Source: Escherichia coli 042
Lineage (GTDB): Bacteria > Pseudomonadota > Gammaproteobacteria > Enterobacterales > Enterobacteriaceae
Reading direction: 5' to 3' (one strand)
Assembly: GCF_000027125.1 (NCBI RefSeq)
Contig: NC_017626.1
Length of the DNA stretch: 64,000 bases
Part shown: one piece after another, positions 10,344 to 13,300 of the stretch
Position numbering within the stretch: position 1 is the first letter of the stretch
How the letters are laid out: the number at the start of each line of letters is the position of its first letter
Position numbers: made by a program

Positions 10344-13300
10344 TAATCTTTTTTGCTTGAAAACTAAAGCCTTAGCGTTCTGCGTTAAGGCTTTTTTCAT
10401 GGGTGCCGGATACAAAAAAGGCCGCAGGCTGTTACCCCTGCGGCCGTTTTCGGGCGCATATTGCCATCACGGCAGCCTGACGCCCGTTTTCACCTTACTT
10501 CCGGTTACGCCACCAGCTGACAATCACTGCGGTAATAATTCCCGTCAGGATCGGTGCCGCCAGGTCGTGCCAGAAAATCATGGCAAACTGCGCGAGCGTC
10601 ATATAGCCGCCTTGTTGTAATGACAACATTTTGCGGCTATTCTTGAATTGTTCTGGTTCAAGATTAGCCCCCGTTCTGTTGTCAGGTTTTACCTCTCAAC
10701 GTGCGGGGGTTTTCTCTTTCCAGCAACCAATGCCACCAGGGATAAAGCCCCCGCTACATTGCGCCTCACCGTATAATTCCGGCTTGGTGTGGATATTACG
10801 TCTCAATTCATCTTCACTTCATCCCTGAAATGTTTGCAATGAAGAGTGCATTCCGGTTTTTCAACAGCTGTTACAGTCGTTTCATGAGTGCTCTGGATGA
10901 TGCTTCCAGCTCGGGTTGCCAATATTTACTTGCAGAAGAGATAAAGACAAAAAGGGCCGCAGGCTGTTACCCCTGCGGCCGGTTTCGGGCGCATATTGCC
11001 ATCACGGCAGCCTGACGCCCGTTTTCACCTTACTTCCGGTTACGCCACCAGCTGACAATCGCTGCGGTAATAATTCCCGCCAGGATCGGTGCTGCCAGGT
11101 CGTGCCAGAAAATCATGGCAAACTGCGCGAGCGTCATATAGCCGCCTTGTTGTAATGACAACATTTTGCGGCTATTCTTGAATTGTTGATGGTTCAAGAT
11201 TAGCCCCCGTTCTGTTGTCAGGTTTTACCTCTCAACGTGCGGGGGTTTTCTCTTTCCAGCAACCAATGCCACCAGGGATAAAGCCCCCGCAACATTGCGC
11301 CTCACCGGATAACGCCGGCTTGGTGTGGATACTACGTCTCAATTCATCTTCACTTCATCCCTGAAATGTTTGCAATAAAGAGTATATTCCGGCTTTTCAA
11401 CAGCTGTTGCAGTGGTTTCGTGCAGGTTCTGGTACAGGCTCGCAATTCTGATTAACAACCTGTTCAGGTAGTATGAAGAAATACAATAAGCAGAAATTTA
11501 TATTATCTCCCCCGATTTCAGTCATCGGAGGAGATATAACTGTCAGGCAAATATCGTCATCAAATAGGCGGCAAACAGTGCCAGATGCGCTGCGCCATTG
11601 AGCACGTTAGTACGTCCGGTGGAGAAGGAGATATGGCACAGCACTAAAGAGGCCACCATCACCACCATTTCTGGCGCACCAAGTGCAAACTGCAATTCGT
11701 TACCCGTCATAAAGGCAATTAGCGTGACGACAGGTACGGTAAGCGAAATGGTTGCTAACACTGAACCAAAGAACAGATTCATCGCGCGCTGGACCTGGTT
11801 GTTCAACACTGCTTTTAACGCACCTAAACCTTCCGGCGACAGAATCAACAGAGCCACCAGGAAGCCAGTAAAGGCGACAGGGGCATTCATGCTGTCGAGC
11901 AATGTCTCCAGCGGGCTGGCGTTCATTTTGGTGACTGCAATAACGGCAATCAGATGGACAATCAACCAGATAGCATGCCAAAGGCTGCTATGGGCAGACG
12001 GTTTACCGTGGTGCGGGTCGTCATCATCACTGTCATCTTCGTGCTCGTAGACAAATAAACTTTGATGCGTTTTGGTCTGGATCAGCAAAAATACGCCATA
12101 CATTGCCGCAGAAATTAATGCTACCAGTAACGCCTGACCGGTTGAAAAATTCGCCACAGGCAGAGCCATTGGAAATACCAGTACGATTATCGCCAGGGGG
12201 AACAGCGCAATTAAATACTGCTTGATACCAAACAGATTCATATATTGGGTGGCAAACTTGCGTCCGCCCAACAATAATGAAAAGCCAACCAGCCCACCGG
12301 TAACAATCATAATGATTGAATAGAGCGTATCACGCATTAGCGTTGGCGCGGCATCGCCGGTTGCCATTAAAGCTGAAATCAAACTGACTTCAAGAATAAC
12401 CACTGAAAGGCTAAGAATAAGCGAACCGTAAGGTTCTCCCAGGCGATGGGCTAATACGTCCGCATGACGGACAACACTAAAGGCGCTACTTAAAATACCA
12501 ATAAGAGCAAGAAGATTGATGCCAATGACCACTGGTAGTGTCTGGCTGCTTCCCCACAGGAACAGCACTACCAGCGCCAGAACCGGGAAAATAAGCGAAG
12601 TCTCCTTGTGGCGGGTTTTTACCGCCTCTTGAGCATTTGACATTATGGTTATCCCTTTGCAGATGAATTTATCGAAAATGTAAAAAATAGGTAGGAAAAA
12701 TAACAGAAAGTGTCTGGATATCGGTAACATTTTACGAATTTTTACCCCGCTGTCGATTTTTTACTCATCGGGCCATAAAAATAAGCAATGCGTTTAGACA
12801 ATGTTTGTTTTAGCGTTTCTTAAGAAGAGTCTGACATGAAAATTCTTATGTTTTGGCAAGAGTGGATATTGTTGACCACACTTAATGTTCAACTTTGTAA
12901 AAGGAGTCAACGATGCCGTATAAAACGAAAAGCGATCTGCCGGAAAGCGTAAAGCACGTGCTACCGTCTCATGCTCAGGATATCTATAAAGAAGCGTTTA
13001 ACAGCGCATGGGATCAATATAAAGATAAAGAAGATCGGCGTGATGACGCCAGTCGCGAAGAAACCGCGCATAAAGTGGCCTGGGCTGCTGTGAAGCATGA
13101 ATATGCCAAAGGGGATGATGATAAATGGCATAAAAAATCGTAAAACCGGTAGCTTAGTTAAAGCTATTCGTGCGGTGTTGCCTTGCAAGTGGTCCGTGGA
13201 TTGCATATTGTCCCGTTAGTGGTTTCAAAATGAGCAGTAAAAATGTCCGGAAGACACCAAAAAGTTGTCGCAGGGAAGTATGCAGTGGCGGAGGTGTAAG

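Follow-up and report, generated by a model that had tools for sequence, protein, structure and literature searches.

We found that the spacer between kdsA and chaA in Escherichia coli 042 almost certainly carries two ldr/rdl type I toxin-antitoxin modules, arranged as a two-unit LDR array whose copy number is set by unequal recombination and whose order, an A-type unit followed by a C-type unit, is usual in the lineage and probably the older arrangement. The window, by which we mean the whole 64,000-nucleotide stretch of DNA that was analysed, holds the array at positions 10412-11542, where two units of about 535 bp stand in tandem in a kdsA-chaA spacer of 1196 bp. We assigned the array to the LDR family because of its matches to PF13940 and RF01813, its terminators, the flanks and gene offsets that it shares with K-12, and the names given by PGAP to genes at the same locus. 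Nothing in the array is new; everything matches the described family. The individual features are as follows.

9492..10346, plus strand: kdsA, the left flank of the array (284-aa ORF; named kdsA in matching E. coli records).
10412..10946, unstranded: LDR unit 1, kdsA-proximal (repeat families D1 and D2; position and sequence match K-12 LDR-A).
10420..10445, minus strand: intrinsic terminator hairpin of the ldr-1 mRNA (stem of 9 pairs, 8 of them GC, with TTTTTTGT as its tail; the T-run extends to about 10412).
10495..10602, minus strand: ldr-1 coding sequence, 35-aa toxin, T20/V26 allele (ORF and translation; PF13940).
10650..10715, plus strand: rdl-1 antisense RNA, the antitoxin (Rfam RF01813 rdlD, 87.6 bits, E = 2e-18).
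10691..10710, plus strand: rdl-1 terminator-like site (terminator scan; hairpin and U-tail).
10947..11542, unstranded: LDR unit 2, the chaA-proximal terminal unit (counterpart of K-12 LDR-C).
10955..10980, minus strand: intrinsic terminator hairpin of the ldr-2 mRNA (terminator scan).
11030..11137, minus strand: ldr-2 coding sequence, 35-aa toxin with A20/A26, the same peptide as K-12 LdrA/LdrC (translation; PF13940).
11186..11251, plus strand: rdl-2 antisense RNA, the antitoxin (Rfam RF01813, 83.6 bits).
11543..12643, minus strand: chaA, the right flank of the array (ORF; 366-aa ChaA beginning MSNAQEAV; named chaA in matching records).

A repeat search resolved the array into two families of direct repeats. 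The first (D1) pairs 10412-10652 with 10947-11187 (241 nt, 98% identity, spacing of 535 bp), and the second (D2) pairs 10654-10953 with 11190-11489 (300 nt, 86% identity, spacing of 536 bp), with a 1-nt indel between the families. The kdsA-chaA gap is therefore occupied by a tandem direct repeat of the ~530-bp class with a period of 535/536 bp, and this array is not explicable by chance. When aligned, the two units differed at 48 of 535 positions in total: 18 of the first 467 columns, over which they are 96% identical, and 30 of the last 68. Past about position 11415, unit 2 consists of a terminal-type tail that reaches chaA. An Rfam scan across the whole 64-kb window found only the two rdl copies listed above, and no third.

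The Ldr peptide of each unit is 35 aa long and hydrophobic, has the conserved tryptophan and is basic at its C terminus: MTLAQFAMIFWHDLAAPILTGIITAVIVSWWRNRK for ldr-1 and MTLAQFAMIFWHDLAAPILAGIITAAIVSWWRNRK for ldr-2. Both peptides matched the Pfam family Ldr_toxin (PF13940) over its full length (1-35 of 35), with 82.7 bits for ldr-1 and 86 bits for ldr-2 against a cut-off of 27. Among NCBIfam models there was no match above the cut-off; the best was a sub-threshold hit to an Fst subfamily (15.7 versus 26 bits), which is consistent with the published relationship between Ldr and Fst. The two coding sequences differ at 3 nt, one of them synonymous and the other two giving T20/A20 and V26/A26.

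The antisense genes were equally clear. Both rdl matches run over the full length of the Rfam model (1-66 of 66 for rdl-1), scoring well above the gathering score of 50 and with all pairs canonical. Each begins 48 nt beyond the ldr ATG on the opposite strand, the same offset as in K-12 rdlA, so that a cis-encoded antisense RNA of ~66 nt lies upstream of each ldr start codon. The sequences of rdl-1 and rdl-2 differ only at 3 of the first 4 nt. A scan of the region returned 7 terminator-like sites where 1.3 were expected, and intrinsic terminators were found for all four transcripts, that is, for both ldr mRNAs (a GC-rich hairpin and T-run on the minus strand) and both Rdl RNAs (a hairpin and U-tail at the 3' end). 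These results bear out most of the first-pass annotation, which had been made by reading the sequence. It had identified the locus as LDR (ldr/rdl), now backed by PF13940, RF01813 and a position shared with K-12; it had described two near-identical units of about 480 bp with a period of about 535 bp, on which the D1/D2 repeats and the unit alignment agree; and it had placed on the minus strand of each unit a 35-aa Ldr toxin, for which we have ORFs, translations and PF13940 matches. Translation returned exactly the two residue differences that it gave (T20A and V26A), and its antisense, terminator-bearing Rdl-like region corresponds to the RF01813 matches and plus-strand hairpins.

The array closely resembles that of K-12. 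The K-12 LDR-A/B/C repeats (Kawano et al. 2002, as cited in PMC4147584 and PMC12643268) occupy the same locus with the same flanks and the same ~535-bp unit, and they share with the window a layout of ldr terminator, 35-aa coding sequence, divergent rdl and upstream region. The gene offsets of K-12 ldrA/rdlA are identical to those in unit 1, and the offsets of ldrC/rdlC are matched as well. As the first-pass annotation had stated, K-12 has three copies where the window has two: in the MG1655 annotation the kdsA-chaA gap is 1729 bp, one unit (533 bp) longer than in the window, and contains ldrA/rdlA, ldrB/rdlB, and ldrC/rdlC. The alignment to the K-12 copies that the same annotation had proposed paired unit 1 with LDR-A and unit 2 with LDR-C and left LDR-B, the middle unit of K-12, without a counterpart. 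Specifically, unit 1 has 16 mismatches in 534 positions to LDR-A, compared with 53 to LDR-C, and is A-type almost throughout the sites at which LDR-A and LDR-C differ. Unit 2 has 16 mismatches in 535 positions to LDR-C, has a single mismatch to the second unit of CP076709.1, and from column 438 on agrees with LDR-C at the informative sites. Besides the absent LDR-B counterpart, the window differs from K-12 in the T20/V26 allele of unit 1 and in the 5' end of rdl-2, which reads UUGAUGG against GUUCUGG through a 1-nt indel and substitutions.

Other known systems are similar to different degrees. The architecture of the two-copy E. coli arrays in LR134238.1, CP076709.1, and AP022087.1 is identical to that of the window. 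LDR-D (ldrD/rdlD), the copy that has been studied most, shares the Ldr_toxin and Rfam rdlD families and the same proposed cis-antisense control of the 5' UTR (PMC4147584); however, it is a lone unit that lies elsewhere, at bcsG-yhjV, and LdrD is 74% identical to LdrA. The hok/sok system is unrelated to LDR in sequence, and the analogy to it through a leader ORF (ldrX) is a hypothesis. PGAP places two genes named "type I toxin-antitoxin system toxin Ldr family protein" at the kdsA-chaA locus in many E. coli genomes.

To characterize copy number across the species, we built a query from the flanks alone, joining the 2.5 kb that lead up to the kdsA stop to the 2.5 kb that begin at the chaA stop, and ran it against 5,426 complete RefSeq E. 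coli genomes. The number of units was read from the gap length in the match span, with ~660 bp taken as one copy, ~1196 bp as two and ~1729 bp as three; this conversion was checked against the annotation of three genomes (a one-copy genome, a three-copy genome and a one-copy genome with IS200C). Frequencies were estimated from two samples, one of 58 genomes and one of 45.

Sample spread evenly over the ranking (58 full-length matches): one copy, 17 plus 2 with an extra ~709 bp; two copies, 14 plus 1 with an extra ~709 bp; three copies, 24.
Genomes closest in the flanks (45 genomes, 99.6-99.8%): one copy, 4; two copies, 41; three copies, 0.

In the even sample, three copies were thus found in 24 of 58 genomes, two in 15 (about a quarter), and one in 19. 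In AP027432.1, the one genome checked for it, the extra ~709 bp proved to be an IS200C insertion. Two copies are the standard state of the window's lineage and are common across the species, which makes the array ordinary lineage variation. The first-pass annotation had itself named this outcome, two copies as the norm of the lineage, as the one that would speak against its reading of the copy number; 41 of the 45 closest genomes do have two copies, though the other 4 have one.

The window's array also recurs elsewhere nearly unchanged. In LR134238.1, a complete chromosome of 5.28 Mb, the whole 1196-bp spacer is identical to that of the window, as are 2 kb of flank on its left and 1.2 kb on its right, and three further assemblies have the same two units with 1-5 mismatches. 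Unit 1 had at first the look of an unusual sequence: no match above 97.9% identity was found among the 5,426 complete RefSeq E. coli genomes, and complete RefSeq genomes are at least 11 of 535 positions away from it. We rejected that idea. An exact-peptide look-up showed that the T20/V26 peptide is already public (e.g., CBG34093.1) and present on 115 contigs, which, with the identical spacer in LR134238.1, makes unit 1 a known allele of a lineage that is missing from the RefSeq complete collection. In the same look-up, the ldr-2 peptide was on at least 1000 contigs, where it is named "small toxic polypeptide LdrA/LdrC". The T20/V26 allele occurs in one-copy arrays as well. It is a pre-existing allele of the kdsA-proximal unit and not a by-product of a change in copy number. 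Both substitutions are conservative changes inside the hydrophobic helix, at positions that vary in other natural alleles; as a weaker possibility, the allele could differ in toxicity or in neutralisation by YajC.

It is barely conceivable that the two-copy state is an assembly artefact in which a true three-copy array was collapsed. Units that exceed short reads in length and show 96% identity across 467 bp could in principle be merged, and a similar suspicion has been published by Bustamante and Vidal, who reported just one copy for NRG857c, an adherent-invasive E. coli strain, and suspected that the assembly was at fault (PMC7232551). However, the identical spacer lies in the complete chromosome LR134238.1, the complete genomes nearest to the window are mostly two-copy (41 of 45), and each of the three copy numbers turns up repeatedly among hundreds of genomes that were finished independently. 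Moreover, the 48 differences between the units, including the diverged terminal 68 bp, give an assembler enough anchors. At kdsA-chaA, departures from three copies are real and lineage-structured; they are not assembly errors of the sort once suspected for the one-copy strain.

Unequal recombination at the locus is visible in two ways. First, gap lengths step by exact units (about 660, 1196 and 1729 bp). Second, in one single-unit array with the T20/V26 allele (L009), all informative sites through column 451 are of the unit-1 type and those from column 496 on are of the unit-2 type, with the related two-copy array of L006 as the reference. This pattern suggests that L009 is a clean crossover product; its source is probably a draft short-read assembly, so assembler collapse could look alike. 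Other assemblies carry an IS element in or beside the array. The recombinational copy-number change proposed in the first-pass annotation stands in this respect: unequal recombination does occur here. What lacks support is the implied loss from a three-copy state, given that 41 of the 45 nearest genomes have two copies and none has three.

The direction of change was approached through outgroups. We scanned species-representative genomes with a conserved 17-mer of rdl, which gave 28 loci, 20 of them in unrelated taxa; chance alone would produce 2 x 298e9 / 4^17 = about 35, and the matches are mostly of that kind. For the comparison we kept the 8 loci in Escherichia, Citrobacter, and Pseudocitrobacter alone, of which the E. 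albertii locus lies at a contig end and is uninformative. Two LDR units are present between kdsA and chaA in each of Escherichia whittamii and Escherichia sp. E1V33. The E. whittamii array is colinear with the whole spacer of the window at 90% identity, and the internal junction is common to E. whittamii (...GGGTTGCCAGTGTTTACTTGCGGCAGAGATAAACACAAAAAAGGCCGCAGG) and the window (...GGGTTGCCAATATTTACTTGCAGAAGAGATAAAGACAAAAAGGGCCGCAGG). In Pseudocitrobacter vendiensis this locus contains a single unit, whose ldr is interrupted by an in-frame stop. On this comparison the LDR locus is old, and since E. whittamii shares the junction, a two-unit array with the window's junction probably predates E. coli.

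LDR-B adds to this picture. In K-12 it is mostly C-like over columns 8-463, agreeing with C at 11 of the 14 sites that separate A from C, and A-like over the rest, starting at column 468. Such a hybrid, C on the left and A on the right, is the structure expected of the middle unit formed when an A-C array crosses over unequally, the C unit of one chromatid recombining with the A unit of the second; gene conversion could equally produce the pattern. Together, the hybrid LDR-B and the two-unit arrays of the outgroups suggest that the three copies of K-12, and not the two of the window, are the derived state, where the outgroup evidence is one genome per species, probably a draft short-read assembly by its contig names, in which tandem repeats may be under-counted. 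We give about even chances to a fuller account in which a two-unit array of an A-type and a C-type unit with the window's junction was ancestral in Escherichia, LDR-B is a young hybrid from one unequal crossover in K-12-like lineages, and the one-copy arrays of the most flank-divergent strains (for example, NU14 and clone D i2) are hybrid deletions. If two-copy ancestry is true, the textbook description of "three tandem LDRs" would refer to a derived arrangement and copy number would be a lineage-structured marker, which is of minor interest.

We also considered a recent loss, in which unequal crossover removed one unit from a three-copy array like that of K-12, either in the window's genome or in its immediate ancestor, and judge this extremely improbable. 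The proposal fits a gap that is one unit shorter than that of K-12 (1196 versus 1729 bp), deletion by unequal crossover has been seen at the locus (4 of the 45 closest genomes are one-copy), and L009 offers a clean hybrid single unit. Yet no K-12-type hybrid, A/B or B/C, occurs among the two units of the window. Nor does the proposal accord with the absence of three-copy arrays from the 45 closest complete genomes, with four further assemblies that have the same two units at 0-5 mismatches, or with the two units of sister species, E. whittamii sharing even the junction. We therefore retain the two-unit array as the lineage's own state. It is a textbook type I toxin-antitoxin repeat, and PGAP annotates two-copy arrays as a matter of routine, in hundreds of E. 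coli genomes. Outside K-12, deletion, expression or primer work on ldr should allow for anywhere from one to three units and for allelic peptides.

How the modules would work can be drawn from the literature on the K-12 copies. A stable ldr mRNA would be made from the minus strand and end at the GGCCGCAGG...CCTGCGGCC hairpin, and its product would be a 35-aa single-pass inner-membrane peptide. On overproduction, Ldr would cause growth arrest or death, with loss of ATP synthesis, a presumed pore and condensation of the nucleoid. Rdl, an unstable RNA of ~60-66 nt with perfect complementarity to the ldr 5' UTR, would be transcribed on the other strand, a short way upstream of the ldr start codon. 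Rdl would block translation of the toxin, perhaps via a leader ORF (ldrX) in a hok/sok-like manner, a hypothetical step. At the kdsA-chaA locus, the number of units changes by unequal homologous recombination between the ~535-bp repeats, and the species is polymorphic for one, two and three of them.

Several of these steps have been described for individual members of the family. LdrD is toxic and is counteracted by RdlD, an antisense RNA that overlaps the 5' UTR, and the ldrX idea was proposed in the same work (PMC4147584). Rdl overlaps the long ldr 5' UTR rather than the ribosome-binding site (PMC4147584; PMC12643268). LdrA is an inner-membrane, presumed pore-forming toxin whose translation is repressed by rdlA (PMC12643268). 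For the family as a whole, Fozo et al. inferred that duplications had taken place within particular lineages, along with some losses (PMC2887945). Judging from sequence, cross-repression between unit 1 and unit 2 is likely because the Rdl bodies are identical.

One or both units could in principle be decayed, non-functional remnants. Chromosomal type I loci decay in some lineages, with the in-frame stop of the Pseudocitrobacter vendiensis copy as an example, and some E. coli genomes have IS elements in or beside the array. We consider this very unlikely for the window. Both ldr ORFs are intact and full length, with 83-86 bits to Ldr_toxin; both rdl genes match the full Rfam model with canonical pairs throughout, and the terminators are intact. 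The ldr-2 peptide is that of K-12 LdrA, which is experimentally toxic, and the T20/V26 changes of ldr-1 are conservative and fall where natural alleles vary.

A consensus scan gave no usable promoters for ldr or rdl. A perfect TATAAT on the plus strand of unit 1 (10772-10777) was dismissed as a promoter, as it is accompanied by neither a -35 element nor a TG motif. Two further candidates that the consensus scan did not report were noted by eye. The sequence TTGTAA-17 nt-TATTCT, a putative promoter, ends 7 nt before rdl-1. On the minus strand, TAATAT at 10798-10793 is a putative ldr-1 promoter, from which the mRNA would be ~375 nt long.

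The middle of the three LDR units of K-12 MG1655, LDR-B (2621-3155 in the K-12 locus, L001), is a mosaic. Columns 8-463 of the unit alignment are mostly LDR-C-like, matching LDR-C at 11 of 14 informative sites (those at which LDR-A and LDR-C differ), and the last ~68 bp are LDR-A-like. This is the pattern expected if LDR-B arose when an array of two units underwent unequal crossover. Two units also occupy the kdsA-chaA gap in two sister species, Escherichia whittamii (L030, 5152-6354) and Escherichia sp. E1V33 (L038), and the internal junction of the E. coli array is present in E. 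whittamii as well. In Pseudocitrobacter vendiensis (L032), the same kdsA-chaA locus holds a single unit, whose ldr carries an in-frame stop (W30*); each of these copy numbers rests on one genome per species. The LDR locus is therefore older than the genus Escherichia and is decaying in some lineages.

Insertion sequences lie within or adjoining the LDR array in genomes related to the window, at the following places:

L014 (NZ_AP027432.1), 2695-3153: IS200C, between kdsA and the lone LDR unit
L011 and L012 (CP026831.1), region 1436-2804: three IS-type ORFs in L012, located between the first ldr and chaA and carrying HTH and rve integrase domains

The ORFs of L012 probably represent an IS3-family element, and L011 has a gap of 2640 bp, equal to that of L012. 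Given these insertions in and beside the array, the LDR locus is a recurrent insertion target in addition to being a recombination hotspot.

Between the two units of the window there are also small sequence differences. Unit 1, the A-type copy next to kdsA, has a perfect TATAAT on the plus strand (10772-10777), where other units have GATAAC or GATAAT. Neither a matching -35 element nor a TG motif accompanies this hexamer, which is therefore probably meaningless. A 1-nt indel at the 5' end of rdl shifts the upstream reading frame, such that the ldr frame of unit 2 (11030-11197, minus strand) has 55 open codons, starting from a TTG within the rdl-complementary region, versus only 44 from an ATG in unit 1 (10495-10629, minus strand). 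Forms of ldr with 55 aa are annotated in some genomes.

Elsewhere in the window, two RtT repeats follow a pair of tRNA-Tyr(GTA) genes on the minus strand (27383-27943), and this is a tyrT/tyrV-type locus:

27859-27943, minus: tRNA-Tyr(GTA) gene
27740-27824, minus: tRNA-Tyr(GTA) gene
27562-27693, minus: RtT repeat element (RF00391)
27383-27514, minus: RtT repeat element (RF00391)

A lambdoid prophage has its early region at about 54000-62000. Records matching this segment include exonuclease, Rha and YdaT-type genes, and the segment encodes three small RNAs:

58238-58289, minus: DicF small RNA
57922-57998, minus: isrK small RNA
57810-57897, minus: C4 antisense RNA

Of the complete E. coli genomes searched (5,426), only 134 contain at least 80% of this 8-kb segment.
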